The notes under the pieces: model-generated | The model's database searches: none | What the model was told of the DNA's origin: nothing | The model's input: only the letters and a program-made list of their open reading frames with translations | Shown: positions 2,068 to 26,573 of the stretch, one piece after another | Numbering within the stretch: the first letter of the stretch is position 1 | Layout: each line of letters starts with the position of its first letter | Made by a program: the position numbers and the translations under genes | NCBI GenBank assembly: GCA_046759445.1 | Contig: JBHICG010000002.1 | Location: 52,763 to 116,762, forward strand | Reading direction: 5' to 3' | DNA length: 64,000 nt | Origin: Candidatus Scalinduaceae bacterium | Lineage (GTDB): Bacteria > Planctomycetota > Brocadiia > Brocadiales > Scalinduaceae

Positions 2068-2901
2068 TCAATTTTCCAGTTTATTAACAAATCTCTTAAT
2101 CACTTCAAAATATTCCTCACCACCCACTATATAAGTATCGTTATGCGTGGCGCCAGGAATTGTATAGAATTCCTTTGGTTCATTGGCTGCCTCGTATAAA
2201 GTCTTTCCCTGTTCGATTGGTACAAGTTCATCTCTGTCTCCATGAAGGATAAGGACAGGTACTTTTACGTCCCTTATCTTCGTAATACAATCATATTTTG
2301 CCTGTAGGATATAGCCTACTGGTATGTAAGGAAAAAGGGTCCTTGCAAGTTCTTTCATAGACGTAAAAGGAGTTTCAAGAATCAGACCACAGCATTTTTC
2401 CTTTATGGCAAGATCAACGGCTACTGCGCTACCGAGGGAGCGGCCAAAAAACACAATCTTTTCATGATCTACGTCCCTTCTCGAAAGTAGATACTCAAGG
2501 GCTGCATTAGCATCAGTATATGTTCCCTGTTCAGATACCTTGCCCTCACTCTTACCATACTGCCGATAATCAAAGATAAAGATATTTAAGGGCACTCTGT
2601 CGTATAGCATCTTTATGTTTTCGAGTCTATGGCTTATGTTTCCTGCATTGCCGTGAAACCACAGGAGTGTATGCAGATTGTTAGCAGTTAGAATTTCTGT
2701 TTTACCCGGGATAAACCATCCGTTAAGCTTCAGTCCATCTTCGGTATTGAACGTGACATCATCATATTCAATACCCCAATCATCAGGTGTTGAATATACG
2801 TCTTTGTCCGGGTAGAAAATGAATTGATTTTCTATGAAGTCAGCACAACCCATTATAAATAATGTAGTGAAAACTAAGGATATTACATATTTCTTTACCA
2901 T
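2068..2901 (-). CDS. alpha/beta hydrolase (ABHD13/BEM46-like), probably exported
   Basis: FHGNAGN, DYRQYGKSEG, GRSLG nucleophile, HGDRDELVP, GATHND; hydrophobic N-terminus ending in GC. Confidence 0.9.
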   Translation of the reverse strand: MVKKYVISLVFTTLFIMGCADFIENQFIFYPDKDVYSTPDDWGIEYDDVTFNTEDGLKLNGWFIPGKTEILTANNLHTLLWFHGNAGNISHRLENIKMLYDRVPLNIFIFDYRQYGKSEGKVSEQGTYTDANAALEYLLSRRDVDHEKIVFFGRSLGSAVAVDLAIKEKCCGLILETPFTSMKELARTLFPYIPVGYILQAKYDCITKIRDVKVPVLILHGDRDELVPIEQGKTLYEAANEPKEFYTIPGATHNDTYIVGGEEYFEVIKRFVNKLEN

Positions 2902-2996
2902 TGTAATTAATACAGTTCATGAACTATGTTGTTGATTCCACATTACTATTCTTTTTCTGTGGATTTTTTAGTGGTGTTTTCATTGATAAGGACAAT

Positions 2997-3260
2997 TTAT
3001 GTTTCCCTTTGAGTTCCTTGTTTAATATGATATGTAATTTTGTTTTTATACATAAAAGGGTCTGTAGAAAAGCATAGATGAACATACTTTATCTTATTTC
3101 TATATTTTGGTATTTCTTTGTCCAGAAGCTCTAAAGCATTGGAAACAATCTTAGGTTGACACCATTCTTTATTACTCATTATTTTTGTATATGCACTTGC
3201 ATATTCCTTAATGATCTCTAATTTAATCTCGGACCAGATTCCTATTTGGTCAAGTTTCAT
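2997..3260 (-). pseudogene. chimeric remnant: TcmP-like N-terminus fused to a radical-SAM-like internal fragment
   Basis: MKLDQIGIWSEIKLEIIKEYASAY resembles the TcmP N-terminus; PKIVSNALELLDKEIPKY...VHLCFSTDPFMY resembles the radical SAM partner; only 87 aa. Confidence 0.55.
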
Positions 3261-3314
3261 TACTATTTTGTTTATAGATTACTTATTTTTATCTTTTAAG
3301 CAAGGCTTGATCCT

Positions 3315-3330
3315 TTTTTAACGGTCGCTG
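3315..3330. repeat. 16-bp direct repeat TTTTTAACGGTCGYTG, copy 1 (others at 7549-7564 and 9495-9510)
   Basis: Read directly; copies 1 and 3 are identical, copy 2 has one mismatch. Confidence 0.8.
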
Positions 3331-3386
3331 GTATTATTATTTTGCAACTCTAAAATGGAATAATTTTCCAATTTCATTTTGATCGT

Positions 3387-4988
3387 CTAAATCATCAAGC
3401 TATTGTAATACTTTTTTCTGTATTTCTGAAGAATAAAGCTATCCTTGCATGCTGAGCAGTTCTTTTGTGGAAGGGGTGAAAATTTTATCCAATGGTTGGG
3501 TCTAGAAAAGAGGTCATGATCTATGTAAGTGACATCTCCCTTTAGCGCTCTATCAGGAAAGATGCGTTCTTTAAGAATTTCTCCTCCAATGAGTATTCCG
3601 GGAAGAACCGCTGCAAAAGGTATTGGAACTATCAAAGAAGCCTGTCCCTCAAAACTCATTTGGCCGCAATGTAAAGATACCCAATCTGTAAAACGTTCTC
3701 CTAAAGATGGTAATGGAAATCCTAACCTACATTGGACTTCTTGCATTTGAGATATATGCCAGTCCTTAAAATATCCGTTATTATTACGCAATGTTTTTAC
3801 TTCTTCGTATGGGAGTCCTATGAAATTTGCTAAATCTCTGTCTGGATCCTGCTTATTGTTATTTTGCAAGCAAACATGACAAGCAGTTAGACCCATTTCT
3901 ACCCTTTTTACATAGAACCCTCTTTCTGCCACACCAGCATCAAATATAATTCTAGGAAGGTCCCACTGAATTGCTTGTCGAGTTTCTAGGTTGTCAACGG
4001 TTGAAATAAGTAAATCGAAAGAATCGTACTTAGTGATCTTTGAGAACTCTAAATAAGTCTTTTTATAAGCATCAATTTCAAGGTTCGGAAATTGATCAAA
4101 TAGTTTTCGTATTAGGTGGACTTTTGGCACTTTTTCCTTTGCATCTTTTCTGATGGCATATATATAACGATTAAGATTTGACAAGGTCACTTCATCTGGG
4201 TCTACCAAAACTACTTTACCTTGTAACTCAGGCAGACATACAAGGCAATATAGACAAGCACCCCCTCCAGCGCCAACTCCAACTGTAAATACTTGCCCGA
4301 GATCAATAGTTTTAGGTAAAGTAGGGTTATCAGCATTTAACTTAATTTGTTCGTACGAAAAGAGAGAAAAGTGTATTTCGTCTTCAAGTAAATTCATTCT
4401 GGGTAGTTCGCTTGATTTAATACCTAAAGTTGTACCTTTATATTCTAAGACTCTTTTGAATATTTCGCTTACCGCCCAACAAGCAGTTGCCATAGCTCCT
4501 ATTGGATTGAAGTTCGATGAAAATTCTCTGTCGTCACTTTTAGCCACTAGATGTACAAACCAACCGTCAGATGAGATTGAGACCATGTTAGGATGCCTTA
4601 TACCTGTTTTTCCTATACCTATTAGTACTAATGGCTCACAAGATAAAGAAGGCAAAATTCGAAGATTAACCCCGGTGGATATAATAGAAGAAAAATGGGT
4701 AACGGCTTCAGTTAGACTAGTATTATTTACTAAAGGGATAGGGGTTATAAGTCTAGAATTTCGTTCAAAGATTACATAAATTTCTGTAATAATTGGATGA
4801 AGTCGTAATAAAAGGTTAAGAACTGTAAAGAAAGTAAGTTGACCATTTGGATTAACAGAAGCTTCTTTTCCTAATATTACTATTATAGGCGCAGGCACCT
4901 TAGCCCATCTATGAACTTCTTGTGGGGAAGATGGCATGAGCTGCCTAAGAAGTGTCATCGTCCTTAAGCACTCCTGTTCAGATTTCAT
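3387..4988 (-). CDS. E1-like ubiquitin-activating (ThiF/MoeB family) protein with N-terminal extension, BilD-like
   Basis: VGVGAGGG, DPDEVTLSNLNRY, STVDNLETR, Zn pairs CHVC and CSAC, candidate catalytic Cys in LHCGQ; about 230-aa N-terminal region resembling an inactive adenylation domain. Confidence 0.88.
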   Translation of the reverse strand: MKSEQECLRTMTLLRQLMPSSPQEVHRWAKVPAPIIVILGKEASVNPNGQLTFFTVLNLLLRLHPIITEIYVIFERNSRLITPIPLVNNTSLTEAVTHFSSIISTGVNLRILPSLSCEPLVLIGIGKTGIRHPNMVSISSDGWFVHLVAKSDDREFSSNFNPIGAMATACWAVSEIFKRVLEYKGTTLGIKSSELPRMNLLEDEIHFSLFSYEQIKLNADNPTLPKTIDLGQVFTVGVGAGGGACLYCLVCLPELQGKVVLVDPDEVTLSNLNRYIYAIRKDAKEKVPKVHLIRKLFDQFPNLEIDAYKKTYLEFSKITKYDSFDLLISTVDNLETRQAIQWDLPRIIFDAGVAERGFYVKRVEMGLTACHVCLQNNNKQDPDRDLANFIGLPYEEVKTLRNNNGYFKDWHISQMQEVQCRLGFPLPSLGERFTDWVSLHCGQMSFEGQASLIVPIPFAAVLPGILIGGEILKERIFPDRALKGDVTYIDHDLFSRPNHWIKFSPLPQKNCSACKDSFILQKYRKKYYNSLMI

Positions 4989-5479
4989 ATTCGAATCTCC
5001 AAAGGTAAGATAATGAATCTTTTCTGGATTTCCTTAACAGGCAATTTTCTCCACCATAGTTTTCCTTGGTACTCGTAAATATAACAATTCTTTGAAAGTT
5101 CCATTCCTGAAAGACAATAGTTCCATACAACTATTGAGATGTAGCCAATATGAAAACTCACTGGATGCCTTTCATCACCTGTTGAATGTTCTACCTGGTT
5201 TGGGTGACTATGAACTTGCGCTAGTAAGGTTAAACTATGCCTTGAAAGCTTAGTTACAAGTCTTATCAAATCGTTTTGCTCGAGAGAAACTCCCTCTCCC
5301 CACTCAGAACCCCCAACAAACATAGTGGTTATAATAGAAGATTCTTGTGCTCTTTTACCAGCCCAAAGTACAAGACCTTCTTTACCGATTTCCCCCTTTA
5401 GTTTTAAATACGCTTCTGTGCCAGATATTATCTTATGAGAGATATAGAATTTATTAGCTATGGCGGTAACTAACTTCAT
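4985..5479 (-). CDS. JAB/MPN+ metallopeptidase (deubiquitinase-like), BilC-like
   Basis: EGLVLWAG...QVHSHP...STGD JAMM motif; overlaps both neighbours (ATGA). Confidence 0.88.
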   Translation of the reverse strand: MKLVTAIANKFYISHKIISGTEAYLKLKGEIGKEGLVLWAGKRAQESSIITTMFVGGSEWGEGVSLEQNDLIRLVTKLSRHSLTLLAQVHSHPNQVEHSTGDERHPVSFHIGYISIVVWNYCLSGMELSKNCYIYEYQGKLWWRKLPVKEIQKRFIILPLEIRI

Positions 5480-5904
5480 TGATAAGCTTTGTCCATTTCA
5501 ACTTGAATATCTTCTAATACCTTAGATAATAAATATTTCTTTACATTCCAAGTATAGTTAGTATGTAGAATCTCATGAAACTCTCTAATGCCTGGAATAC
5601 ACAACTGTGGTGGATTACGCCCCAGCGCAGCCTGAAAGGCTGATCCTAGTTTTGGCCAGAATTGCTTCCCTTCTTGCCTAGTCTGTGGATCAACAAAAGT
5701 AAAAGCAGGAGCTCTTTGTGGGTATCCCTCGTAATATAAGCGTGCCATAAATTTTAAGGTTGGACTCTTTTTAGGATACATAAGTACATATACATATAAC
5801 CCCTCTGGTGTTACCTTCCATCCGTGATAAATAAACAGGTTATTATGCGCTTGGAGACAATCTAATTGTTCTTGAATTTTGTGACTAATAACTTCACTTT
5901 CCAT
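5476..5904 (-). CDS. E2-like protein of the CEHH metal-binding type, BilB-like
   Basis: YPQRAPAFTFVDP (UBC-like YPxxPP core) and LCIPGIREFHEILH, matching the CxxxxxE(Y/F)H..H signature. Confidence 0.8.
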   Translation of the reverse strand: MESEVISHKIQEQLDCLQAHNNLFIYHGWKVTPEGLYVYVLMYPKKSPTLKFMARLYYEGYPQRAPAFTFVDPQTRQEGKQFWPKLGSAFQAALGRNPPQLCIPGIREFHEILHTNYTWNVKKYLLSKVLEDIQVEMDKAYQ

Positions 5905-6158
5905 TAGATCACCACTGCACCAAGAGGGGTTAGAATAAGCGTAGCACCGTTTGGCACATTTGATTCGCCGATAGTATCATCCTCAGACAGGGGATTACCA
6001 TTGAATATTAAACGATAGTTGTCCGCTTGTGACGGATCGATCCCCAACTTAGCCATAGTAGATACTTTCAAAGCTCGAATAGGTTGGTTCGTATTTACCT
6101 CAACTTCTAAAGGCTGTTCTGTTGCCGCAGATTCAATTGTTAGTATAAGTTTTTCCAT
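5904..6158 (-). CDS. single-domain ubiquitin-like (beta-grasp) protein, DUF2604/BilA-like
   Basis: YRLIFNGNPLSEDDTIGESNVPNGATLILT resembles ubiquitin [35 protein letters not shown] RBS upstream. Confidence 0.88.
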   Translation of the reverse strand: MEKLILTIESAATEQPLEVEVNTNQPIRALKVSTMAKLGIDPSQADNYRLIFNGNPLSEDDTIGESNVPNGATLILTPLGAVVI

Positions 6159-6236
6159 TGCATTTCCTCCTATTTAACTTAAATTAAAAATTTTTAATTT
6201 TTCATTAATCACGAGATAGAACTTGAAAATATAGTA

Positions 6237-6334
6237 GTTAATAAATATTTAACCATAGCTTAACGTACCTGTCAAGGGAAAAATTTACTAATAGTTAATT
6301 ATTTATTGACCTATCTTTCACAACTCGTTATACT
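6237..6334. promoter_or_regulatory. divergent promoter region with two 17-bp imperfect palindromes (candidate XRE operators)
   Basis: GTTAA-N7-TTAAC at 6237-6253 and GTTAA-N7-TTGAC at 6294-6310; plus-strand TTGACC(6306)-N17-TATACT(6329); minus-strand TTGACA at 6275-6270. Confidence 0.6.
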
Positions 6335-6362
6335 TTATGCAATTAAGGAGACCTAATAAATA

Positions 6363-6710
6363 ATGGAAGACCAACTTGCCAAACGAATTGGACATCGCAT
6401 AAAGAGCAAAAGAATTGAACGCAATATAAATCAAAACAAATTGGCTGAGAAGGTAGGTATAAGTCCCGCAGCAATAAACCAGTTTGAGAAAGGAGAAAAG
6501 AAACCATCGTCCGATGTACTCACTAGGATCGCAAAAGAATTAAGTGTCTCCACTGACAGTCTTCTTACTGAAAAGGGGGATGAAATTTTCGTAGATGAAG
6601 AGGTTAAAATAGCTTTTAGAGCATTCAAAAAGTTGGAAAAAGGGGATAGAGACATAATCGTAAAGAATATACAATTTCTTAAAGAACAAGCGAAAAGAAA
6701 AGGAAAATGA
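6363..6710 (+). CDS. XRE-family HTH transcriptional regulator (CapH-like)
   Basis: RIKSKRIERNINQNKLAEKVGISPAAINQFEKGEKKPS HTH_3 pattern; AAGGAG RBS. Confidence 0.9.
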   Translation: MEDQLAKRIGHRIKSKRIERNINQNKLAEKVGISPAAINQFEKGEKKPSSDVLTRIAKELSVSTDSLLTEKGDEIFVDEEVKIAFRAFKKLEKGDRDIIVKNIQFLKEQAKRKGK

Positions 6711-7486
6711 ACATAGCAAAACTTTACGCAAAAGATCTTCTCATAGAATTTGAGAACTTATCTTTACCTATAAATCCAAAGAAAATTGCTGAGGCTAAAG
6801 GGATTATAATTAAAGAAGATGATCTAGAAGGCTTTAGTGGTATGTTGCTTAAGGTAGGCAAAAGAACTCTTATTAGCGTTAAAAGAAGCATAAGAGAAAG
6901 AGGGAAAAAGAGATTCACACTAGCCCATGAACTAGGGCATTATCTTTTGACTAAACACTTAACACCTTCAGATATCTCATTTGAATGTACTGATGAAGAC
7001 ATACATCATTTCGGAGAAAAAGATAATAAAGAGTCAGACGTGAATGCATTTGCAGCAGAGTTACTTATGCCAGAAGAATTTTTCAGAGAAAGAATTAGGT
7101 TAAGCGATCTTACTTATGAACTGATAGATAGTCTTACAAAAGATTTTGATACCACACTTACGGCTACTGGTAGAAGATTTGTGGAACTTAGTTCTTCATA
7201 TGCATTAGTTTGTTCTCAAAATTCTAAAATAAAGTGGTTCCTTAAGGGAGAAGATTTTCCTTATTATTTGTACTCTTCAGGTACCGTAAGCGAATCTTCG
7301 GTTGCCATAGATTTTTACTAGAGAAAAAAATTACCTACTTGTTTTGAATTGGTACCTGCAAACGCTTGGATTGATGACAACAGAATAGAGGACATGGAAA
7401 TCTTGGAAATGGCTATACCACTTCCATACTATAATCAGGTTTTAAGTTTTTTAAGCATTGATAATTCCAATGAAGATAATGACTAG
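6707..7486 (+). pseudogene. ImmA/IrrE metallopeptidase (CapP-like) interrupted by an in-frame TAG at 7319-7321
   Basis: RFTLAHELGH, FEC and ESDVNAFAAELLMP; the same frame continues 54 codons past the TAG (RKKLPTCFELVPANAWIDD...YNQVLSFLSI...) to TAG at 7484-7486. Confidence 0.8.
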
Positions 7487-7750
7487 TAGACCCAAGTCAG
7501 ACTTCTACTGATAAATTGCCTAAAATCGGCCAATTAAGCATAATACATTTTTTAACGGTCGTTGTCCCTAGTTTGTATAAACTTATAGAAAGGCTAATAA
7601 ACCTCTGTTTCACTTGTCTATCGTATGATGGACATGTATAATTTGATGAGTTATGGGGTAAGAATGCTACAAAGCAAAAAACTTGACTCGTTATTCCAAT
7701 GGTGATAAAATCTTTAATACTTTCCTTAAAGTTCACCCACTAGACCTATC

Positions 7751-9202
7751 ATGTCTATCCTTAACAAAGCAGAAATAGTAAATATTAAAAATGAAGATGA
7801 TTGGATGGATGTTTTGTCTTCATGCGAAGGCCATTTATCAATAAAAGACTACCCCAAGATATCTGAATATTTATCGAATAATATCAAGACAGTATTTATT
7901 GAAAAAGATTATATTGATAAAGATTTTCGAGATACATTTTATAACTTCTATTCAAAAAAATTCGCAGATTACCCCAACAAGGCTATTAGACTTCACTTTT
8001 TTACTACCCTTATTAGCAACGATGACATTTATGATTTAGACAAGTATCAAAACCATTATGTTGGTTTTATAGTTATAAGGCCTACAAGAATTAACACAAT
8101 AGGTAGAACTATTTTAGATCCTTCTAAAATATCAAAAGCAGGCGGATATATTTGCTCTACAGATTATAAAGTCCATATTCTTGGTGCAGAATTAAATGTT
8201 AATGGGTTTCCTTACATAAGCCAAGACACAGACGTTACTGTTTGTGCTCATGCCGCTTGTTGGATGGTTTTTAGATATTTCAGTGAAAGATATCCAACTT
8301 ATGCAGAGATTTTACCGTTTAAGATTTCCCAATTAACAGAAAACCTTTCTTATGGCAGACTTGTTCCATCAAAGGGGTTATACCTTTCTCAAGTTGCAGA
8401 AATATTTTCAAAGTTCGGATTTTATCCTGAAATTTATATTAAAGCTCAGTATCAAGATAATTTTGACAGGCTACTTTATTACTATATTGAATCGGGTTTG
8501 CCAGTAGTTGCTGGACTTAGCAGACATAATCATGCAATAACAATCTTGGGCCATCTTTCTAATTATGAAAGATCTGTTTCAAATAACAGTGTAGAATATG
8601 TTGATGGTCTTATAATTAATGATAATAATCATCTCCCTTACCAAAAACTTTTAAGAAGTAATCTTAAAAAAGAAGGTTACTGTTCAAAGTATCACTTTGA
8701 AGATATAGATAGCTTTATCGTTCCCCTGTATGAAAAAATTTACTTTTCTGCCGAATATGTTGATGCTATGGCGGAAGCTTTGTTAGATGACACACATTTT
8801 GGTATTAACGCTTTGTCTCAGCTTGTAAAGAAAAACAACATTATAAAAAGAATATTTCTTACATCTTCTAAGTCCTATAAAATACAAAGAAGAAAACAAA
8901 ATTTACCTTTTAATCTGTCATCGACATACTGTGGAATGAATATGCCAAAGTTTATTTGGGTATGTGAATTATCCACCTCAGAATTTTACTCAAAAGGTGA
9001 AATTATAGGTGAAATTATTTTTGATGCTACAGCAAACCATATTGATACATTCTGTTTTTTGGTTATACATTACCCAGACTTTATAGTATTTAATGATAGA
9101 AATTATTTGACTTATAATCCAGAAAGGTTTATAAAGGGCACACTTAAAACAAAAGATTTGCTATCATATCAATTATATAAAAATAATCTAAAGGAGATAT
9201 GA
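7751..9202 (+). CDS. hypothetical protein with papain/C39-like Cys-His-Asp/Asn motifs
   Basis: SQDTDVTVCAHAACW, HAITILG and IINDNN; 483-aa intact ORF. Confidence 0.6.
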   Translation: MSILNKAEIVNIKNEDDWMDVLSSCEGHLSIKDYPKISEYLSNNIKTVFIEKDYIDKDFRDTFYNFYSKKFADYPNKAIRLHFFTTLISNDDIYDLDKYQNHYVGFIVIRPTRINTIGRTILDPSKISKAGGYICSTDYKVHILGAELNVNGFPYISQDTDVTVCAHAACWMVFRYFSERYPTYAEILPFKISQLTENLSYGRLVPSKGLYLSQVAEIFSKFGFYPEIYIKAQYQDNFDRLLYYYIESGLPVVAGLSRHNHAITILGHLSNYERSVSNNSVEYVDGLIINDNNHLPYQKLLRSNLKKEGYCSKYHFEDIDSFIVPLYEKIYFSAEYVDAMAEALLDDTHFGINALSQLVKKNNIIKRIFLTSSKSYKIQRRKQNLPFNLSSTYCGMNMPKFIWVCELSTSEFYSKGEIIGEIIFDATANHIDTFCFLVIHYPDFIVFNDRNYLTYNPERFIKGTLKTKDLLSYQLYKNNLKEI

Positions 9203-9203
9203 T

Positions 9204-9377
9204 ATGTCAATTATGAAATTTCCACCAATGGAAGAAAAAAAAGGATTTTTAGATACTAATGAAAAGGTTCATGAGGCTTGGTGTTCTTTAGAAAAAGCAA
9301 CGGAGAAAGATTATAAGAAATACGATGAAGCGAAAAGGGCTGTACAAGAAATATCCCAAACTAAACTTTTAGACTAA
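9204..9377 (+). CDS. small 57-aa protein (not in ORF track)
   Basis: AAGGAG at 9191-9196, ATG 1 nt after upstream stop; MSIMKFPPMEEKKGFLDTNEKVHEAWCSLEKATEKDYKKYDEAKRAVQEISQTKLLD*. Confidence 0.65.
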   Translation: MSIMKFPPMEEKKGFLDTNEKVHEAWCSLEKATEKDYKKYDEAKRAVQEISQTKLLD

Positions 9378-9568
9378 GATTAAAACGAAGAAATTATTTC
9401 CCATAAAATAACAGTTCGGTCTTACATTTAAATTAATCAACTCACTTCTCAAAGATTTCAATTGCTTGGTTTATGCTTATATCCCATCGTAAGATTTTTA
9501 ACGGTCGCTGTTGTATATGCTCAGTAATTAAGTAACTCTTTTGGTATAATAAATCAAAAACATTTTTC

Positions 9569-9770
9569 TAAGACAGAATCATCCTTTCAACTTTGGTTTT
9601 TGCTGTTTTAATAATTTTTTTTGCTTCTTCTTGTAACTTTTCTGCATTTTGCATTCATTCATTAACTTCATCTACGATTTTTTGCTGAATATTTAGAGAT
9701 GGGATTGGGATCTTGGTGGTATTCAATAATTCAACATTTACCCCTGACTGATTATTCCAATTTGTACATA
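9569..9770 (-). pseudogene. restriction-modification specificity (S) subunit C-terminal fragment
   Basis: NQSGVNVELLNTTKIPIPSLNIQQKIVDEVNE*MQNAEKLQEEAKK...; internal stop, no N-terminus; coordinates approximate. Confidence 0.55.
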
Positions 9771-10085
9771 TAGTAAAAAATATCTTATGTTTTTGATATA
9801 TATTTAGAATTATTGTTAAGTATTCTGGGCAAAATAGGGCCAATAAGAGAAAGGAAATAAATTACGTTTTTATTGCATAACATTTTACTTAAGCTAACTG
9901 TAAATTAGTCATACCTTTCAATATTTTATCTCCTTCCATTCTACATTTCTTTACTGCAGTTAGGGTTCATTCTTCCAGCAATGTTTTTGTCTAAAATAAT
10001 TTCTCTATCCAAGTTCTGTAAGTTCTTCAATTACTTTTAAGTCTGTATCTGTGGCTTCGTTAATATTTGGCATATTAATACACAC

Positions 10086-10271
10086 TCATCTTTTTTGTTG
10101 AGGCTTACTTTTCTATGATATCTTCTGTGGTTGTGAAAATAGCTCCAGCATCTTTCATTTCATTCAGTGCTTCTTCTACCCTCTTCGTTAACAGCCTTAA
10201 TCGCATCTGTAACCAGTGAAACTTTGTACCCACGTCTTAGCAGTTCAAGGATGGCCACCTTAACACAAAAT
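10086..10271 (-). pseudogene. nicotinamidase/isochorismatase C-terminal fragment, frameshifted
   Basis: FCVKVAILELLRRGYKVSLVTDAIKAV, then a shifted frame EEALNEMKDAGAIFTTTEDI; coordinates approximate. Confidence 0.55.
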
Positions 10272-10368
10272 TAATTAAGGAACCTAATTATATCCTTGCT
10301 GTCTTTTGTATGATAAATAATTATTACAATCGGTAAATTATTTTTCGCTTCCACCTGAATAACCCTTT

Positions 10369-10584
10369 TTAATAGTTCTTGTTGTGACATTTATCGAGAC
10401 GCTTCAAGAGCATTTTTTTGAATTCTTTTTCTGAAAGATTCGGAAATCTCTTACGTAATCCATGAATAAAAAGTTTATTTGCAAATTCGGACAACTCAAA
10501 TGCCTTAAGCAACCTCCTTTCAGGTGACATTTTACGAAGCACTTGAATGTATATCTTATGATTTGGACGTTCTTTAATATTCAT
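10369..10584 (-). CDS. small hypothetical protein, type often found upstream of nucleotidyltransferase genes
   Basis: YIQVLRKMSPERRLLKAFELSEF; overlaps a truncated MSQQELLKRVIQV start at 10390. Confidence 0.55.
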   Translation of the reverse strand: MNIKERPNHKIYIQVLRKMSPERRLLKAFELSEFANKLFIHGLRKRFPNLSEKEFKKMLLKRLDKCHNKNY

Positions 10585-10663
10585 ATTTGATAAAGTTCTT
10601 TTAAGGCTTCTTTTTCTCTTTCTTCACTAACAACTTTAACTGTTCCACAATATTTTATCACTT

Positions 10664-11044
10664 CTATAACTGTTTTTTTAACCATTTTAGAACCTCTTTG
10701 CCTTTTTCAAATATTACCTTTGTTTTCTCTTTATCATAGTCTTTTAGCATCTTCTGGAGGTCGTCTGGATAATATGGGAAGATTCTCATCTTATTCAGGG
10801 CAGAAATAGTATCAGAAAATTCTTCAGGAAGCTTTAAGTGAACTTTTTCAATGAGATACGGTAGATTGTTTGTGTTTAAGGGTATTGCGTTGAATTTCTT
10901 CTGATAAAGCCCTTTAAGGGCTTTTTCAATGGAAAGATGGCACAGAAATACGGCATAAAAATACCTTTCGGCCTTAAGCATATACTCGGCAGTATCCATA
11001 TCGTAATCAGCCTGACTCAGCCATTCTTCAGGTTTTTTTGCCAT
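10664..11044 (-). CDS. HEPN domain protein
   Basis: EEWLSQADYDMDTAEYM...AVFLCHLSIEKALKG; AGGAG RBS. Confidence 0.85.
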   Translation of the reverse strand: MAKKPEEWLSQADYDMDTAEYMLKAERYFYAVFLCHLSIEKALKGLYQKKFNAIPLNTNNLPYLIEKVHLKLPEEFSDTISALNKMRIFPYYPDDLQKMLKDYDKEKTKVIFEKGKEVLKWLKKQL

Positions 11045-20107: not shown

Positions 20108-20665
20108 TTAGGCAGAGTGTAAGTTAGCTTGATTATTCTCTCTAAATTCATCGGCCTCTTTGATGATCCTTTGCCACTCAGTTGGTCCCGTTCCAGAATA
20201 TAAGCCTTGGATTTCCCCGTATATTTCCCCAGAAATACAGACTAACAGAAATGAATCAGCCCTTGATATCGAGTCGGCTGGAACTTGGACTCTACCATTA
20301 TCTATTTCGATGTAGATGGAAGAATTGCGTATCTTGAAGAGATCGCCGTCTCTAAACCATTTGGCAAACCTTGATTCCTCTCTGCCATAGATACGCTTGA
20401 CTCGCGCATTCACTTCGAGTGTCATACCAACCGCATATATATACTTCTGCTCATGATTATAGAAACTTCTCTTATCAAGTTTGCCTGAAAGATCCTTATT
20501 GCCAAGTATGATTATCTTACCCACCTCTTCAATGAGAGTGATGGCAAAGAAAGAAGCAAGAGCAAAATCATTCTTCTCGTAGAAACGGCGAGCTAATAAC
20601 CAATACTTCTCTAGGTGATCTCGCGCCCCTTGCGGTAGAGAGATAGGCTTAGTATGGATATCCAT
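20108..20665 (-). CDS. AbiV-family (HEPN) abortive-infection-like protein
   Basis: ASFFAITLIEEVGK, NHEQK and RNSSIYIE pattern. Confidence 0.7.
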   Translation of the reverse strand: MDIHTKPISLPQGARDHLEKYWLLARRFYEKNDFALASFFAITLIEEVGKIIILGNKDLSGKLDKRSFYNHEQKYIYAVGMTLEVNARVKRIYGREESRFAKWFRDGDLFKIRNSSIYIEIDNGRVQVPADSISRADSFLLVCISGEIYGEIQGLYSGTGPTEWQRIIKEADEFRENNQANLHSA

Positions 20666-20843: not shown

Positions 20844-21731
20844 TTAATTTTCAACCTCACTACGAAATAAAAACCTTTCTTTTTCAAATAGAATTTTTGA
20901 AATAATAATATCCAAAATAAGGAACATTCTCTTTTCAAGTTTTTTGCTGGGTCCATAGTTAGCAGGAGCAAAATAATTAATTCTTTTGGCTTTGACTAAT
21001 TTTTTGCAAACATTTAATGATTTTGGGCTATTTGGCTTATATACAGCAATGGCAAATCCACTGTTCATCTTTACTACTGTCATCGATGGTACATCAGTGA
21101 GACCATCTCCAATATAAATCATATTAGAAAAAGGGATTGCTCTTTCGCTTTCAGGCATATATTCATTAATTGATTTCGTAACATCTTCTATTCCTTTATT
21201 TATTCGAAATAAAAATTGAGTTTTTGATGTATCATTAATCACTATTGTTGGAAATTTTGCCACATGATGATGATCAAAGAAATATTCAGAGGCATACATT
21301 CTTTCGAAATTTTTTTTAATATCTATTCCCTCTAATATTTCCTTTAAACCTGACGAAATAATGTAATGTTTTATTTTTACTTTATCATTTGACTTCTCTT
21401 TAACATAATCATTAATCCGATCAAACCATGTCTTAACACCAGGATAATAATTAATATTTTTAGCAAGACTTTGAAGTTTGTTTTTATCGAGATGAGTTCT
21501 TTTTTCTTCAATTTTTTCAATGAGTAACCGCATATAAGTAAGCATACCATCCGCTTTTGTTTTTTTTGTTTCTTTTTTGACTTCTTCCCAAAACTTCTTT
21601 GAACTGAGCTGTAACTCGGGAAGCATAGTATATTCTTGCATTGGTAGAGGAGTTAGGGTTCCATCAAAATCATAAACCACTGCGATTACATTTTGGCCAA
21701 AAGATCTTCTGGTTTTTTTACTTTTTTTCAT
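20844..21731 (-). CDS. HAD-superfamily hydrolase
   Basis: YDFDGTLT, IISSG, KTQFLFRINKG, YIGDGLTDVP. Confidence 0.9.
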   Translation of the reverse strand: MKKSKKTRRSFGQNVIAVVYDFDGTLTPLPMQEYTMLPELQLSSKKFWEEVKKETKKTKADGMLTYMRLLIEKIEEKRTHLDKNKLQSLAKNINYYPGVKTWFDRINDYVKEKSNDKVKIKHYIISSGLKEILEGIDIKKNFERMYASEYFFDHHHVAKFPTIVINDTSKTQFLFRINKGIEDVTKSINEYMPESERAIPFSNMIYIGDGLTDVPSMTVVKMNSGFAIAVYKPNSPKSLNVCKKLVKAKRINYFAPANYGPSKKLEKRMFLILDIIISKILFEKERFLFRSEVEN

Positions 21732-21751
21732 AAGGGTTATTTACTTTTTTG

Positions 21752-21866
21752 TTTCTAATGGCAGAATTGAACGGCAACCGCAGGCGACACGGAGAAAGTG
21801 AACGCAAGCGCTCGCATATTAATGTCGGCAAGGCGGCAGCCCCGCTTGCAATGCATTTGTCAATAT
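21752..21866 (-). mobile_element. degenerate integron attC-like site
   Basis: Minus strand TATTGAC-AAATGC-ATTG[C]AA[G]CGG...CCGTTCAAT-TCTGCC-ATTAGAA; L boxes pair with two extra bases; GC-rich internal stem. Confidence 0.55.
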
Positions 21867-22062
21867 GAAATAATTCTTATTTCATTTCTGTGCAACCAAT
21901 AAGAGACTCGGCCCCTTAGTCCGTGACTTTGGCCCTTTAATTGGGATATGTTGTACCCGAACCTTCATTATTCAACAATTAATTGTTTTTTTAATACTTC
22001 AATCTCTTTCTGGAATTTCTTATCTCTTTTTATCCAGGTTTCTAATCTCTTTAGAGCTTCAC

Positions 22063-22986
22063 TTACCGTTGACCCTTTATTCCCATCCCAATTTCTATAT
22101 TCTTCATATCGTTTTTTATTTTGACGAGCTCAATTAAAAGCTCAATTTTTTTTTCCCATAGTTCTTCTCTTTCTTTCTCAAGTGCCCCAATTTTTTGTAT
22201 GCTATATTGATTGTAGGTATCTAATAATGATGTAGTATCCTTACTTTTTTTAGTAGCTGAAATAGGTTGAATATAAAATTTCAAAAAATCCTTTCTTACA
22301 GTAATACGTTTTTCACTATGCAAAAAGACTCTCAGTTCACGAAGAACAGTTTCTCCACTGTTTAAACCAACAGCGCCGAAACTTTCTGTTTCCACAGTAT
22401 CAACCCAAGGTACTTTCCTTCCTTCCTCTAAGATACGAAAGGATATATTTAAACTATATATAGGAAATTCATTGTTATTCGTAATTTCTATGGGAACAGT
22501 AATCCAATGATTAGATTCCAACTGTGGAGTAATAAAAGTTAATGCCACACTTTTGGCAGTTTTTGCTAAATCTCTTTCAATATAATAATTTGCTAAAACA
22601 GAATCTATCTTTTTAAAACGGTCGTTTAGTGTTGTATATTCACTATTTATTTGATTATATTTTATAAGAAGATCAGCTTTTTCTAATAACGCCGAGAAAG
22701 AAATACCGTCGATTAATGCCAGATATTCAGGTGGGCGTATTGTTTCGTTGAAAAAAGAAGGGTAGCGTGACAAAAAGTGGTCATATTTCTGTTCAAGTAT
22801 ATGAATGATTTGCTCCTGTTGATCAGGAGATGCTTTATTAAGCAAACTAGCAAGGCTTTTTTGGTATGCTTCTTGTGATGAACCATCAATTTCTTCGTAG
22901 GAACCACCACACGAAATCAGTAATGTAGTACACAACAGAGCCGTTAAAACAATTATGAAATTTTTCATAATTAATGTAGACATCAA
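22063..22986 (-). CDS. hypothetical lipoprotein
   Basis: MKNFIIVLTALLCTTLLISC lipobox-like signal; 307 aa. Confidence 0.65.
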   Translation of the reverse strand: MMSTLIMKNFIIVLTALLCTTLLISCGGSYEEIDGSSQEAYQKSLASLLNKASPDQQEQIIHILEQKYDHFLSRYPSFFNETIRPPEYLALIDGISFSALLEKADLLIKYNQINSEYTTLNDRFKKIDSVLANYYIERDLAKTAKSVALTFITPQLESNHWITVPIEITNNNEFPIYSLNISFRILEEGRKVPWVDTVETESFGAVGLNSGETVLRELRVFLHSEKRITVRKDFLKFYIQPISATKKSKDTTSLLDTYNQYSIQKIGALEKEREELWEKKIELLIELVKIKNDMKNIEIGMGIKGQR

Positions 22987-23157
22987 GTCGTGGTTTATAG
23001 TAGTAAACTATCTGCCTTTGTCAATCGAGAACAACCTGAATTTGGGGAGTATTTTATCCGACATTTTTTGGTAGATCTATAAATTATTAAAGAAAATTAT
23101 CTTTACTTTTTTCTATTAGGAGAGGTTTATCTCTTGACAACGGGGACCTTATAGGTG

Positions 23158-23844
23158 TTATGTGCGATATTTATCTAAGAATCTCTGAATTTCATTTTCT
23201 ATTTCTTTGAAAAAAGCTTGGAGAATTTCTATATATGCAGAAATAAATTCGCTCCTAAAAATTACAATATCGCCAGGGTTGCCTGACAAAGATTCTTGCG
23301 CCTTTACAAACTTATTGATTTTGTCGCTTTCATTCTCTGGCAAAACACTGCCATTATGAACAACGCAGTTTCTCAATCTGTTAGTGTTTTTAATGAAAGA
23401 TAGCTCCTTATTAATTCTATCAAATTTGAATTCTGGTATTTTTTTCAAGAATAATAGAGCTCGTTCGATACCACTACCTTTTAAGTCACGAATGCAAATA
23501 TTGCTTTTTAGTTCATCTCCTATCTGACTGCATAATAGGTTTAAATGATGTTCTAGAAAATTATATAGCGTTATAAACATTGACCCTCGATGCATAGAAG
23601 GAAACATAAATTGGTTTTTGTGTAAATCGTATGTATAGCTTTCAATAAACCGATCATGATTATTTTCAGGTATTTCTTTTAGTTTTTCTGTGATATGGGC
23701 CTGTAATTTCTCATCATTTTTTTCAAATAATTTTTCAACCTCAGTATAAAACTGCCTGTAATCGTGAAGATCATTAACAATAGAATGTGGATATGTGACC
23801 AACTCGAAACTAAAAGGAATATTGTTACTTTCTTGTTTGTGCAT
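23158..23844 (-). CDS. HEPN-like hypothetical protein
   Basis: RNCVVH Rx4H motif in a helical protein; LYNFLEHHL. Confidence 0.6.
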   Translation of the reverse strand: MHKQESNNIPFSFELVTYPHSIVNDLHDYRQFYTEVEKLFEKNDEKLQAHITEKLKEIPENNHDRFIESYTYDLHKNQFMFPSMHRGSMFITLYNFLEHHLNLLCSQIGDELKSNICIRDLKGSGIERALLFLKKIPEFKFDRINKELSFIKNTNRLRNCVVHNGSVLPENESDKINKFVKAQESLSGNPGDIVIFRSEFISAYIEILQAFFKEIENEIQRFLDKYRT

Positions 23845-24107
23845 TTTATTTTTTCCTGCACATAATTTACTTTTATATAGAGAATATAGATAGTATAAAA
23901 GAATATAGCAAAAGTAGCAAAAGAATATAGGTGACCTTATTAGATGAAATGTTATATTGCAAGACCTGAACCCATTCTTGCGCTGGCCCCGTTTCTTACC
24001 CTGTTTCTCCCTGTTGGTTTCCCGACACCTCGAGAAAATCTACACCAACCCTATTTTTTCCCTTTATTGTCAGCAACAAAGTGAGCAATAACTTACTGCA
24101 CATGCTC

Positions 24108-24443
24108 TTATTTCGTGACAATGAGCGCAATGAACACCCCCGTGAGTGCCAAATAGAGGCCTTTGATAGCAACACCAAAAAGAATTAGCTCAAATCCTGA
24201 CCAGATCATAAGTGCTACACCAGCAGCAGTCAGCACCACGGTAATTGTAGCAATCCCAATCAACTCTTTCGCGTTGTAATTATTTTTGTGCCTCGTCCGC
24301 AAAGAACCAATGAAACCTGCCGGACCAATGAAACATAACGCGCACGCCACGAGCGCGGCGGTACCACTTACAAGTGAGCTTTTAAACATTACTTGAATGC
24401 AAGTGATCACGGTGATAAGGAAATAAAAATAAGCGAGCCACAT
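24108..24443 (-). CDS. hypothetical membrane protein
   Basis: About four hydrophobic segments in 111 aa. Confidence 0.55.
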   Translation of the reverse strand: MWLAYFYFLITVITCIQVMFKSSLVSGTAALVACALCFIGPAGFIGSLRTRHKNNYNAKELIGIATITVVLTAAGVALMIWSGFELILFGVAIKGLYLALTGVFIALIVTK

Positions 24444-24733
24444 TGGAGAATATAGGTCCAGAGAAAGTTAAATAAGAAATCTAAGATTTATATTTAAGCG
24501 AAAAGTGTAACTAATTTGTAAGTAAATCAAATTTTCATAAAGCAATTCGATTAATCAATTGATTGAGGAATCATCTAGTAGGAAAAGTCTGTTTACTCCG
24601 TGGAACCAACTATTCCACTGGGGTTTTGTTCTTGACATCTATCTCAATAGGTGACCCCGTTCCGCTCTTGTAACGCACAGAGGGGATCTTTTGCGAACAC
24701 CCAGGGCCATGATTGCGGGGCCGCTGAAACGCT

Positions 24734-25015
24734 TTAGAAGTCGCGAGGGTCCGGGTTCAAAATTTCTTCATCACCTTCAATGGGATATTCAGCATCGTTC
24801 AATTCTTTACAGTCAACATGATCACCCAATGACCAAGGACTAATAGCTGTAGGTTGCGCTATTGATTTTTTTTCAACTGCGATGGAGAATTCTAATGTCG
24901 CTTTTCTCCGAGCTTTCTTTTCATCTTCTGCTCGCACTATTACATTACCTTTATATATACTTGCATCCCAATGTTGAGAATTTAAATTTTTCGCTTCTAA
25001 ATAGAATATTTTCAT
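24734..25015 (-). CDS. hypothetical protein
   Basis: 93 aa; VIVRAEDEKKAR motif; cassette-like flanks. Confidence 0.6.
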   Translation of the reverse strand: MKIFYLEAKNLNSQHWDASIYKGNVIVRAEDEKKARRKATLEFSIAVEKKSIAQPTAISPWSLGDHVDCKELNDAEYPIEGDEEILNPDPRDF

Positions 25016-25360
25016 TGTCGATTTCTTTCTTCTAACATTTACTTTTATATTTATTTTATATTTCTCAGCGTGTTATCGTAGTACGTGTTGGATATCAAGC
25101 TCAAACCGATAGAATTGTACTGGGACATAAATATAGACAGCGACTGTTTTACCTAAACCAGTTAACCGTCATTGTACTAACTCAATAATTCGGTAATAAA
25201 TTTTAGTCTTATATGCTCTTTTATAATAGTGTTATAGTAAAAAAAAGTTACCTATTTACTGAGCATATACAGCTGTACCTATTTATTCACCTAGCAAACT
25301 CAGTCTCTCTTGAAAAATCTTGAGCAATTATTTCTGTACTAGTTAAAGCTAATTCACTCA

Positions 25361-26143
25361 TTACTGAAATAACCTCTCATATTCTAAACGTTCTTCAGGG
25401 GTAAGTGACCTTTGCTGAAGTATTTTTATAAGTTTCTTTGCTGTTTTTTGTTTTTCTTCTGTTATTTCCTCAAAATTTGGGATGGGTATGGCCTCTACCA
25501 ATTCGCCAGTTGATATAAAGCTTGGGGGAATTACAACTTTATTTACTTCGTAGCCACTAGTAGAACCATATAGTTCATACGTTCTGGATCTATTTAATTC
25601 GTCTATTTTTGCGACAACGAAATAATCTGGCTCGCTAAAATAGCGAAATGAACGGAACATAAAACCTTCTCGTTTTGCTCCCAGAAATTGTTTAACGTTA
25701 TCTTCAGAAGCAGTTAGCCGAAAGCGTATAGTTGTTTTATTTACATATGGGCACAAAAATTCAACGACAATATCGTTTTCAGTCTTTTCTATATCTTCGA
25801 GATATCCTTTGAACAAGATGGGGTTCTTAGAATGGGCTTCCATGAATTTTTGGATTTCATAAGTGAAAGATGAAACACCCAAATTTTGCGGCAGGAAATA
25901 AACTGCGCTGTACTTACTTTTCAATTCATCAATCTTGAGTCTTTCTTCCTTTTGAGATTTTTGTACTCGTTCTTTCCTTTCAGCTTCTTCTTGCGACCTC
26001 CTTTCTTCGTAGGATGGGCCACACCCAGAGCTAAGAAGCAATAGACTCAAGATGATCGTATAGGCCAAATGAGTTGTGGATGTCGATTTTTTAGGTTGAG
26101 GATCGCATCTTTGATATTTGATATTCACATTGAGGACTTGCAT
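25361..26143 (-). CDS. hypothetical lipoprotein
   Basis: LSLLLLSSGC lipobox; true start may lie downstream of 26143. Confidence 0.6.
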   Translation of the reverse strand: MQVLNVNIKYQRCDPQPKKSTSTTHLAYTIILSLLLLSSGCGPSYEERRSQEEAERKERVQKSQKEERLKIDELKSKYSAVYFLPQNLGVSSFTYEIQKFMEAHSKNPILFKGYLEDIEKTENDIVVEFLCPYVNKTTIRFRLTASEDNVKQFLGAKREGFMFRSFRYFSEPDYFVVAKIDELNRSRTYELYGSTSGYEVNKVVIPPSFISTGELVEAIPIPNFEEITEEKQKTAKKLIKILQQRSLTPEERLEYERLFQ

Positions 26144-26512
26144 TATTCACAATCCTATGAAACAAGTATTATGATTTGAGAACGACTATTTTTGGCAAGA
26201 AAGCTCATGTTTCTACACTCGTGTAGACATAAACCTGAATTATGTTAACTAATCCACATCATAAGACGCGGCAAAGTTTTTATGCTGGTGAATAAGGTGA
26301 TATTAAATATACTTATTATTGAAGTCAAGTATAAAAAGAGAGGTGGATTCAGGGCCTGTTTCGTATTCTTTTCTGGATTGTCTTGCTCAGGAGAATTAAG
26401 TTTAAAAGGCTGAAGCCTTAACTCCTAATAGTATTGTAACGAAGGCCGATTTGTAATTTAAAATTGCAAAATTAAAAATCCCATCATCCTGTCTAAAAAA
26501 CCCATAATGTTG

Positions 26513-26537
26513 GTGGAAGCCTAAAGGCTTCCGCTAC
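26513..26537. repeat. GTAG-type REP-like palindrome
   Basis: GGAAGCCT-AA-AGGCTTCC-GCTAC; related elements at 57881-57939, 58628-58650 and 58712-58764. Confidence 0.65.
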
Positions 26538-26573
26538 ATATTTTACCTGTGTTTCGTGACCTGCCCGATTATT

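Follow-up and report, generated by a model that had tools for sequence, protein, structure and literature searches.

A probable Type II BilABCD ubiquitin-like conjugation operon with a divergent capH-capP pair, capP being interrupted by a stop codon, in a Scalindua-like planctomycete

We describe here six genes located at positions 3387-7486 of a 64,000-nucleotide stretch of DNA from a Candidatus Scalinduaceae bacterium (assembly GCA_046759445.1, contig JBHICG010000002.1), a stretch hereafter called the window. Four of them lie on the minus strand in the order bilA-bilB-bilC-bilD and encode a ubiquitin-like protein (Ubl), a conjugating-enzyme-like protein (E2), a JAB/JAMM peptidase and an activating enzyme (E1), with overlaps of 4, 4 and 1 nt between neighbouring open reading frames (ORFs). 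The other two, capH and capP, form a plus-strand pair overlapping by 4 nt and are separated from the bil genes by a spacer of 204 bp (6159-6362). All six ORFs begin with ATG and were recovered exactly where a first-pass annotation, made from the sequence alone, had placed them; the short overlaps, in the bil genes as in the regulator pair, make its term "translationally coupled" a fair description. The span that it gave needs one correction, as the end at 7486 is attained only through an in-frame TAG at 7319-7321, within capP, which it did not mention. We consider it likely that the locus is a Type II BilABCD operon under the control of a divergent capH-capP pair in a low-GC island, with a conjugation cascade of the kind proposed below and a damage-sensing arm that is probably broken.

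The E1 gene, bilD (3387-4988, minus strand), encodes a multidomain protein of 533 amino acids that matches the PADLOC BilD profile (E-value 1.1e-18, residues 36-353; E-values are given in brackets throughout) and Pfam ThiF (3.2e-14), the Pfam scan having taken in 10 ORFs from 2068-9377. Its best sequence match in the PDB is the E1 (BilD) of Ensifer aridi, 8tyz_A (6.8e-24, residues 90-530 against 77-509), and in tblastn it aligns with Rhizobiaceae BilD genes at 25-26% identity over 93-98% of the query. C441, the cysteine of an LHC motif, is aligned with the catalytic C417 of E. aridi BilD and is invariant in 31 of 31 E1 sequences, as are the GxGxxG glycines (G237, G239 and G242), D263, R274, K289 and two CxxC pairs (C370/C373 and C511/C514). 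The LHC cysteine that the first-pass annotation had singled out is thus the catalytic one. What was then called an N-terminal extension proves to be a conserved domain, with N58, R62, W143, N161, G164, E175 and K178 invariant in the 31 sequences, and it seems to be the counterpart of the adenylation domain that in BilD is described as inactive. By sequence alone, the protein combines the inactive and active adenylation domains with a CYS domain carrying a catalytic cysteine, as Type II E1s do.

The E2 gene, bilB (5476-5904, minus strand), encodes a compact CEHH-type protein of 142 amino acids recognised by Pfam Metal_CEHH (3.3e-6) and weakly by PADLOC BilB (0.0062). Among solved structures its best sequence match is the E2 (BilB) of E. 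aridi, 8tyz_C (0.0016), in an alignment that includes the CEHH stretch. The motif is complete, with the catalytic cysteine C102 followed by E108, H110 and H114; C102 is invariant in 34 of 34 E2 sequences, whose consensus reads ICxPGTREFHExxH, and the cysteine of the LCIP motif proposed earlier as catalytic is this residue. An AlphaFold2 model was built from an alignment of 34 sequences (the window protein and 33 of 36 hits, one hit of 93, one of 124 and one of 247 amino acids being excluded), with a mean predicted local distance difference test score (pLDDT) of 96.4 and a predicted template modelling score (pTM) of 0.89. The Foldseek neighbours of this model are 8tz0_C (1.4e-5) and 8tyz_C (2.2e-5), with template modelling scores of 0.66-0.73, then Ubc13, UbcH8, UbcH7 and other eukaryotic E2s. 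The fold is thus predicted to be UBC-like and closest to BilB, and the earlier proviso that a 142-residue protein might lack it finds no support in the model. A CEHH motif and a UBC-like predicted fold, with the cysteine at the catalytic position, are what a Type II E2 displays. The family is small: in 1.84 billion proteins it has 36 representatives at E <= 1e-3, nearly all of them 119-151 amino acids long. Aligned to the BilB of S. fredii NGR234, whose operon is on the published Type II list, the window protein lacks both the insertion of about 20 residues that precedes the catalytic cysteine and the C-terminal extension.

The third enzyme, encoded by bilC (4985-5479, minus strand), is a JAB/JAMM peptidase of 164 amino acids that matches PADLOC BilC (9.3e-14), the deubiquitinase (DUB; BilC) of E. 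aridi, PDB 8tyx_B (1.4e-15), and, weakly, Pfam Prok-JAB (0.0021). Its active-site set, E34, H90-x-H92 and D102, is invariant in 15 of 15 aligned sequences and is the JAMM signature of a Type II DUB. The conservation of the catalytic residues of E1, E2 and JAB supports the view that all three would be active enzymes.

The fourth gene of the operon, bilA (5904-6158, minus strand), encodes a single beta-grasp Ubl of 84 amino acids, with matches to Pfam ubiquitin (7.2e-8) and Rad60-SLD (1.5e-6) and weak ones to DUF2604 (0.056) and PADLOC BilA (0.029). In the PDB its best matches are ubiquitins, that to the Ubl (BilA) of E. aridi, 8tyx_A, being weaker (0.0035). Only one ubiquitin-family match is present, at residues 13-76, and the protein does not show the two domains of a Type I Ubl. 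It ends in ...LILTPLG80-AVVI84, with G80 as the sole glycine of the tail.

The regulator pair lies upstream of bilA, in the order capH then capP and divergent from it, so that the two units have the spacer in common. The first gene, capH (6363-6710, plus strand), encodes a putative XRE-family helix-turn-helix (HTH) repressor of 115 amino acids. It matches PADLOC capH (3.2e-17, residues 7-109 against positions 5-101 of a profile of 103) and Pfam HTH_3 (8.2e-16), and the near-completeness of the profile match suggests that both the XRE HTH and the C-terminal oligomerisation region of CapH are present. The C-terminal helical region contains the dipeptide F85-R86. E. coli CapH is reported to be cleaved at F82/R83 (Lau et al., 10.1101/2022.04.27.489752; Calloji et al. 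2026 preprint), and F85/R86 may be the equivalent site.

The second gene of the pair, capP, encodes an M78 zinc metallopeptidase. Its 5' part (6707-7321, plus strand, 204 codons) matches PADLOC capP (4.5e-50, covering positions 6-196 of a profile of 242) and Pfam Peptidase_M78 (3.6e-14), and its best solved relative is the CapP of Thauera sp. K11, PDB 7t5t_A (9.6e-14). In the alignment with the latter, H74-E75-xx-H78 falls on HExxH, C94 on C113, the residue of the cysteine switch, and E109 on E129, which is the third ligand of the zinc. With these matches to both profiles, the proposal of a CapH/CapP-like regulator pair stands. However, the peptidase part is followed by a linker and the start of a GAF domain, and there the frame meets the TAG, at codon 205. 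Beyond this stop the capP frame is open for another 54 codons (7322-7486, plus strand), a 3' remnant that by itself matches positions 207-241 of the capP profile, that is, the C-terminal end of the GAF domain (0.0076). When the stop is replaced by X, the match extends over positions 6-241 of 242 and the score rises by 24.5 bits, from 168.4 to 192.9. CapP as written is thus a truncated protein whose coding frame ends in the GAF region, and the intact GAF domain of a CapP is not encoded. We rejected recoding of TAG, which serves this genome as an ordinary stop and terminates 11 of 55 long ORFs, bilD included. The GAF domain of E. coli CapP (residues 182-288) is described as one wall, or half, of the groove that binds single-stranded DNA (ssDNA) (Calloji et al. 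2026 preprint); the TAG, lying within the corresponding region, removes about half of the sensing domain. The damage-sensing arm is probably broken in the sequence as written, with the operon held at the CapH-repressed basal level. The first-pass description of the system as inducible can accordingly be kept in part: the regulator pair is present, but with a stop in the C-terminal GAF region of CapP the switch may not work in the sequence as given.

The spacer (6159-6362) has the features of a divergent control region. It contains two copies of a 23-nt element, at 6232-6254 and at 6289-6311, both with an imperfect GTTAA...TTAAC palindrome (repeat D1), and an inverted repeat of 20 nt (I1) is 85% complementary. 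A promoter-like TTGACC-17-TATACT directed toward capH lies at 6306-6334 on the plus strand, and the second copy of the element overlaps its -35 hexamer; in 3200-7800 as a whole, 19 promoter-like sites were counted, a figure compatible with shuffled sequence (15.4 +/- 4.0). We regard the 23-nt elements as candidate CapH operators. This assignment is tentative because the pattern searches caught one copy only (the 19-nt degenerate pattern recovered one of the two, and so did the 9-mer) and because the 8-mer TAGTTAAT is not enriched across the window, with 5 occurrences in 64 kb against 4.86 expected by chance, two of the five being in the spacer, 57 nt apart.

What do these genes make together? 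Operons of the CEHH/6C type, with the order Ubl-CEHH/E2-DUB-E1, have been renamed Type II BilABCD, and in the account of Chambers et al. (10.1101/2023.09.26.559546) their DUB pre-processes the Ubl, which E1 and E2 then conjugate to lysines in E. coli. The E1, E2 and JAB of the window all have E. aridi Type II chains as their best solved match, and the PADLOC BilD and BilC profiles match strongly; the first-pass assignment to a BilABCD-type Ubl-E2-JAB-E1 conjugation operon is borne out. The profile searches that had been suggested for it gave a divided answer, as ThiF, Metal_CEHH, HTH_3 and Peptidase_M78 (and ubiquitin with them) scored above their Pfam cut-offs, and BilD, BilC, capH and capP strongly in PADLOC, but Prok-JAB and DUF2604 were weak in Pfam, as were BilB and BilA in PADLOC. 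On the whole the family matches go well past what chance would give. The PADLOC Bil profiles, we presume, derive from Type I operons.

In the mechanism that we propose, CapH bound to the repeated spacer element would keep the operon at a low basal level. The ssDNA arising from damage or from phage replication would activate CapP, which would cut CapH in its C-terminal dimerisation helix and so derepress the operon. BilC would then trim the tail of the Ubl, and BilD would adenylate the new C-terminus before forming a thioester on C441. From there the Ubl could pass to C102 of the compact BilB and, without an E3, to target lysines, BilC being able to reverse the modification. The most probable role would be interference with phage proteins.

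How far is this arrangement shared? Relatives of the window E1 amount to 38 proteins at E <= 1e-5, the best being 40% identical, and those named come from Thaumarchaeota, Nitrosotenuis, Halarchaeum and Gemmatimonadales. Scanning species-representative genomes with the E1 alignment gave 17 loci (11 archaeal and 6 bacterial, referred to below by L numbers), a set obtained with a single peptide pattern and hence a sample rather than a census. The E1 was recovered in 17/17 of these loci, the JAB in 16/17, the E2 in 14/17 and the Ubl in 12/17 (phmmer giving 10 and Pfam a further 2). Of the 12 loci having all four genes, 11 keep the order Ubl-E2-JAB-E1, two of which carry an extra gene between Ubl and E2; in the exception, L009, the JAB lies downstream of the E1. 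PADLOC, run on L001, L005 and L009, found BilA in 0/3, BilB in 1/3, BilC in 3/3 and BilD in 2/3.

The regulators of these loci are less uniform. An M78 gene adjoins the operon in three of the six bacterial loci: L005 (Phycisphaerales) has a divergent pair of HTH_3 and Peptidase_M78 genes, L013 a divergent M78 gene beside an unassigned ORF of 157 amino acids, and L007 genes resembling capH and capP that lie upstream and in the orientation of the operon. L006 has an HTH at the contig end, L004 has no regulator, and L009 is cut by the contig end. Homologous operons therefore do occur with the HTH/peptidase pair, as in L005 and L007, and the proviso that they might never do so is answered. No M78 gene was found in any of the 11 archaeal loci, and divergent winged-helix regulators (HTH_34 or TrmB) are encoded on the minus strand of L001 (6288-6734), L002 (2047-2784), L012 (5784-6527) and L017 (1165-1920). 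The regulator appears to be swapped along domain lines, HTH_34/TrmB standing in archaea where bacteria have CapH/CapP.

A quick maximum-likelihood tree of 47 E1 sequences, rooted at the midpoint, with Shimodaira-Hasegawa-like approximate likelihood ratio test (SH-aLRT) support, had canonical Type II represented by a single sequence and Type I by none; L016 was excluded, its E1 being split. The window falls in a clade of 35 rows (support 99), divergent and largely archaeal and environmental, with the NGR234, L009, L013, Bathyarchaeia and haloarchaeal-plasmid sequences outside.

This clade differs from the canonical systems in the tail of the Ubl. Chambers et al. (10.1101/2023.09.26.559546) describe a C-terminal glycine as "universally conserved" in Type II, followed by up to nine residues. 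G80 followed by AVVI formally fits this rule, yet it is not conserved among the relatives; aligned with the BilA of NGR234 (...KAGVAGA), the canonical glycine falls on V83 and the terminal residue that is removed falls on I84. The tails of the relatives read APLQTQVI in L001 of Nitrosotenuis, EPEPEVI in L002 and L012, ERKDVVKI in L004, ERKEVTKI in L005, EPRSPEVI in L006 and ERREVVKV in L007. Indeed, all 8 known Ubls of the window E1 clade end in V or K and then I or V, and the tail is without glycine in 7 of the 8, the window being the exception. Outside the clade, a glycine is present in the last six residues of 8 of 9 Ubls or Ubl-position ORFs (L008-L011, L013-L015 and NGR234, those of L013-L015 being assigned by position only), and L016 ends in VA. 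The pattern of tails without glycine rests on 13 aligned Ubls and the quick tree.

These observations leave room for a further reading, which we put forward as rather doubtful. The window would belong to a deep, unnamed branch of Type II-like Bil systems, characterised by an E2 of 135-150 amino acids reduced to the CEHH core and without a target loop, and by Ubls without a C-terminal glycine, which end in Val-Ile, Lys-Ile or Lys-Val. The hosts of this branch would be archaea (Nitrosotenuis, other Thaumarchaeota and haloarchaea) together with Phycisphaerales, Gemmatimonadales, Acidobacteria, Komeilibacteria and the Scalindua-like window. If this were true, and if the JAB removed only the last residue as in E. 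aridi, the Ubl would be activated and conjugated through a C-terminal valine or lysine. We know of no E1-E2 cascade with such a chemistry. The nearest named relatives of the window E1 are ammonia-oxidising archaea, a kinship that would fit gene exchange between marine nitrogen-cycle partners.

The surroundings of the operon bear on its nature. The host itself is well placed, as named Candidatus Scalindua proteins share 75-76% identity, and a Brocadiia protein 66%, with the 1-deoxy-D-xylulose-5-phosphate synthase (DXS) of the window; the anammox planctomycete supposed in the first-pass annotation is confirmed as a Scalindua-like member of that lineage. A PVC-type haem-binding protein is also encoded in the window. 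The GC content drops to 0.28-0.35 over about 2.5-11 kb, against 0.39-0.43 on either side, and the low-GC stretch is flanked by housekeeping genes, for NAD(P)H-hydrate dehydratase (572-1468) and 2-oxoacid:ferredoxin oxidoreductase (from 11311). A transfer RNA (tRNA) scan of window positions 1-25000 found no tRNA as an integration site. This stretch, about 2500-11000, looks like an acquired island of defence-type genes, part of them decayed. Just downstream of bilD, an ORF of 87 amino acids (2997-3260, minus strand) resembles the N-terminus of TcmP, the three-Cys-motif partner protein, over its first 30 or so residues (PADLOC PDC-M41A 5.1e-5; TIGR04474 0.0021) and looks like a gene fragment. An ORF of 62 amino acids (9655-9843, minus strand) matches part of a type I restriction specificity domain, HsdS (1.2e-4). 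The HEPN-domain gene (10664-11044, minus strand) is complete (3.5e-21), and downstream of it lies a 71-amino-acid ORF without clear family (10369-10584, minus strand). Further away, 12 kb from the operon, an AbiV-family abortive-infection protein is encoded (20108-20665, minus strand; TIGR04498, 9.8e-23), and this region may be a second defence patch; ORFs of no assigned family lie beside it (20844-28262). A homologue of a REP-associated tyrosine transposase is located at 62376-63362 on the plus strand (NF047646, 4.1e-19).

The gene next to the capP remnant, 265 bp downstream, encodes a protein of 483 amino acids (7751-9202, plus strand) and is directly followed by an ORF of 57 amino acids (9204-9377, plus strand). 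We rejected the 483-residue protein as a fifth component of the operon, for none of the 17 related loci encodes a homologue and its family is large and has a distribution of its own; the gene probably stands apart from the operon. Pfam, PADLOC and NCBIfam gave no match to the protein, which has 409 homologues, in Desulfobacterota and others, with 51-77% identity among the 120 matches listed. Its conservation across phyla is unusually strong, and some of the homologues are named "papain-like cysteine protease family protein".

The related loci have neighbours of their own, namely AbiEii, HerA, Eco57I-type restriction-modification, type I R subunit, Mrr, Schlafen-like helicase, Cas1 and integrase genes, which are typical of defence islands and mobile elements. 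In two of these loci, those of an archaeon (L008, 6191-6985) and of a Bathyarchaeia genome (L010, 6151-6966), both on the plus strand, the gene inserted between Ubl and E2 is proteasome-subunit-like (264-271 amino acids, weak PF00227 matches of 1.1e-5 and 5.6e-6, respectively). It could be a physical link of a ubiquitin-like cascade with a proteasome-type protease in archaea. The haloarchaeal E1 homologues of L002 (4198-6378) and L012 (7968-10148), on the plus strand, are long, with 726 amino acids, about 190 residues more than the others. In the public records, RefSeq gives canonical BilD the name "E2 ligase fold family C protein" and canonical BilB that of "putative metal-binding protein" (L018, which is S. 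fredii NGR234 pNGR234a, and the plasmid hits H2-H13); these names derive from older Pfam families and misdescribe the E1.

Several observations weigh against a Type II BilABCD operon whose damage-sensing arm is broken. The E1 of the window shares no more than about 25% identity with canonical Type II BilD and falls, in the quick tree, in a clade apart from it; the PADLOC BilA and BilB profiles match the window proteins weakly (0.029 and 0.0062); and the E2 is without the extended disordered loop that Chambers et al. (10.1101/2023.09.26.559546) proposed to recognise targets. Since G80 is not conserved in the closest relatives, the site of processing and activation of the Ubl is uncertain. On the regulatory side, a simple scan of the spacer gave the minus-strand operon no sigma-70-like promoter, an error of sequencing or assembly could account for the TAG, and, as natural M78 proteins of 183-199 amino acids exist at two related loci, a truncated CapP might keep some activity. 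Finally, we infer the conjugation, the thioesters, the cleavage of CapH and the protection against phages alike, and an anti-phage role is known, from the published accounts, for a Type I Bil system only.

Some alternatives concern the state of the switch. The TAG may have arisen in sequencing or assembly, or may belong to a minority variant, in which case the cell would possess a full-length CapP of about 259 amino acids and an intact switch. Indeed, the 54 codons after the stop are open and still CapP-like, an open run that at this base composition has a chance of about 2% by our own estimate, so that any real mutation must be very recent, and the other genes of the unit are all intact. Yet the TAG is in the sequence as given and is a normal stop here (11/55 long ORFs), and adjoining island genes are visibly decayed, as the TcmP and HsdS fragments illustrate; we take an intact switch to be possible, though less likely than a broken one. 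In another reading the operon would be the silent, decaying relic of a defence island, shut down by a CapH that cannot be cleaved and heading for loss. The nonsense codon in capP and the fragmentary flanking ORFs (the 87-residue TcmP/PDC-M41A and the 62-residue HsdS) would agree with this, but capH and the four bil genes have their full length and no catalytic residue is missing, the capP remnant carries no further damage, and in E. coli CBASS, a signalling system against phages that is based on cyclic oligonucleotides, the CapH-repressed basal level is reported to be still protective (10.1101/2022.04.27.489752; Calloji et al. 2026). This outcome appears to us quite improbable.

Other alternatives concern the function itself. 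The first-pass annotation spoke of defence, which the defence-type neighbours and the Type I precedent favour; for Type II this is an extrapolation, the targets and biological role still being called unknown in late 2024 (Gong et al.). The operon could instead be a conjugation system for stress response or proteostasis, with DNA damage rather than phage as its signal and host proteins as its targets. Gong et al. call the targets of the Type II Bil and Bub pathways unknown and write that both "may constitute stress response pathways", CapH/CapP respond to DNA damage (10.1101/2022.04.27.489752; Calloji et al. 2026), the BilABCD of E. aridi modified many E. coli proteins non-specifically (Chambers et al., 10.1101/2023.09.26.559546), and the proteasome-subunit-like gene lies within the operon of two archaeal relatives. 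We nevertheless judge a stress role unlikely, as the relatives stand beside restriction-modification, Cas1, AbiEii and integrase genes, the window itself has AbiV, HEPN and the HsdS fragment, the distribution is patchy across domains in the manner typical of defence genes, and Type I Bil is described as protecting against phage by tail fibre tagging. Hardly credible, finally, is a ThiF/MoeB-type cassette for sulphur-carrier or cofactor biosynthesis in place of protein conjugation. The E1 does match ThiF and MoeB NCBIfam models (best 4.5e-9), but at scores far under the curated cut-offs (36 bits at best against 275), and its cysteine aligns with BilD C417; E2 and JAB are both present, the former with an invariant cysteine and a predicted UBC fold, and the Ubl is of the ubiquitin family. 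We rejected membership of that group on these grounds.

A Type II BilABCD operon with a probably broken damage-sensing arm thus remains the interpretation that we retain, and its capP nonsense codon provides a small natural experiment on the retention of a Bil operon after loss of its inducer. The clade with a minimal E2 and tails without glycine is the part most deserving of follow-up. If active, such systems would test how strictly E1 adenylation and JAMM cleavage depend on a glycine, and their tails bear on the fixation of the ubiquitin C-terminus. Given the poor detection of this branch by PADLOC (BilA 0/3, BilB 1/3), automated annotation of defence genes is likely to overlook such operons, and Bil-like systems of archaea and environmental bacteria are probably more numerous than surveys show. 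In the literature we found nothing specific on Type II Bil function from 2025 on, or on archaeal Bil.

How does the locus compare with known systems? Bub operons also have Ubl, E2-like, JAB and E1-like genes, and CapH/CapP in some cases as described; DUF6527 (bubE) is reported as typical of them, whereas no DUF6527 match was found among the 10 window ORFs scanned, and the best structural and sequence matches of the window proteins are Bil proteins. On the regulatory side, IrrE/DdrO of Deinococcus and ImmA/ImmR of ICEBs1 and phages are described with the same peptidase/repressor logic and the same Peptidase_M78 and HTH_3 domains. However, the window proteins score far higher with the profiles for capP and capH than with generic ones (192.9 bits for capP), and CapP has the cysteine switch for which IrrE, as described, has no counterpart. 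The CapH/CapP of the E. coli MS115-1 and Thauera sp. K11 CBASS (10.1101/2022.04.27.489752; Calloji et al. 2026) resemble the window pair more closely in their published description: an XRE HTH with a C-terminal oligomerisation region on one side, on the other an M78 HExxH, a cysteine-switch cysteine, acidic residues thereafter and a GAF-type C-terminus, the pair being divergent from the regulated operon. The window differs in that capP is cut at codon 205 and in that the regulated operon is Bil, not CBASS.

Type I BilABCD of Collimonas sp. OK412 (Hoer et al.) shares with the window the four-gene order Ubl-E2-JAB-E1 and the match to the PADLOC BilD and BilC profiles. By the published accounts, its Ubls have two beta-grasp domains where the window Ubl, with 84 amino acids, has one, and its E2 conserves, of the four CEHH residues, only the C and the final H, all four being present in the window. 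Type I is also the only Bil system for which an anti-phage mechanism, tail fibre tagging, is said to be demonstrated (Hoer et al.; Chambers et al., 10.1101/2023.09.26.559546).

It is thus with Type II BilABCD of E. aridi TW10 (PDB 8TYX-8TZ0) that the likeness is greatest, as it extends to the gene order, the single beta-grasp Ubl, the JAMM DUB, the C..E.H...H motif and UBC-like fold of the E2, an E1 of about 530 amino acids with aligned catalytic cysteine and, in a subset of the published operons, the divergent upstream CapH/CapP. The differences lie in the E1, with an identity of only about 25%; in the E2, which has 142 amino acids against about 204 for Type II BilB, lacks both the roughly 20-residue insertion and the extension at the C-terminus, and has the last histidine of its motif one residue nearer the cysteine; in the Ubl tail, LGAVVI instead of the canonical ...VAGA; and in the host. 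Chambers et al. (10.1101/2023.09.26.559546) report 162 Type II operons, mostly from Rhizobiaceae, with CapH/CapP upstream in 25 of the 162, in opposite orientation and with a common promoter region in all but one. The combination of a CEHH-type E2, JAB, multidomain E1 and Ubl with a divergent CapH/CapP, which the first-pass annotation thought might be undescribed, is therefore already in print. Nor does the single-domain Ubl make this a distinct subtype, as had been suggested, since single beta-grasp Ubls account for 105 of the 134 Type II Bil Ubls considered by Gong et al. The published list of 162 operons (Supplementary Table 1, 10.1101/2023.09.26.559546) includes Bacillus sp. V3-13 (our L009), a Heimdallarchaeota genome and a Parachlamydiales genome, and no Planctomycetes, Scalindua or Brocadia name occurs in it. 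The architecture is already described, and what is new here is the host lineage, a Scalindua-like planctomycete: the locus adds a planctomycete host of the anammox lineage to the known combination of Type II BilABCD and CapH/CapP, a useful if unsurprising extension.

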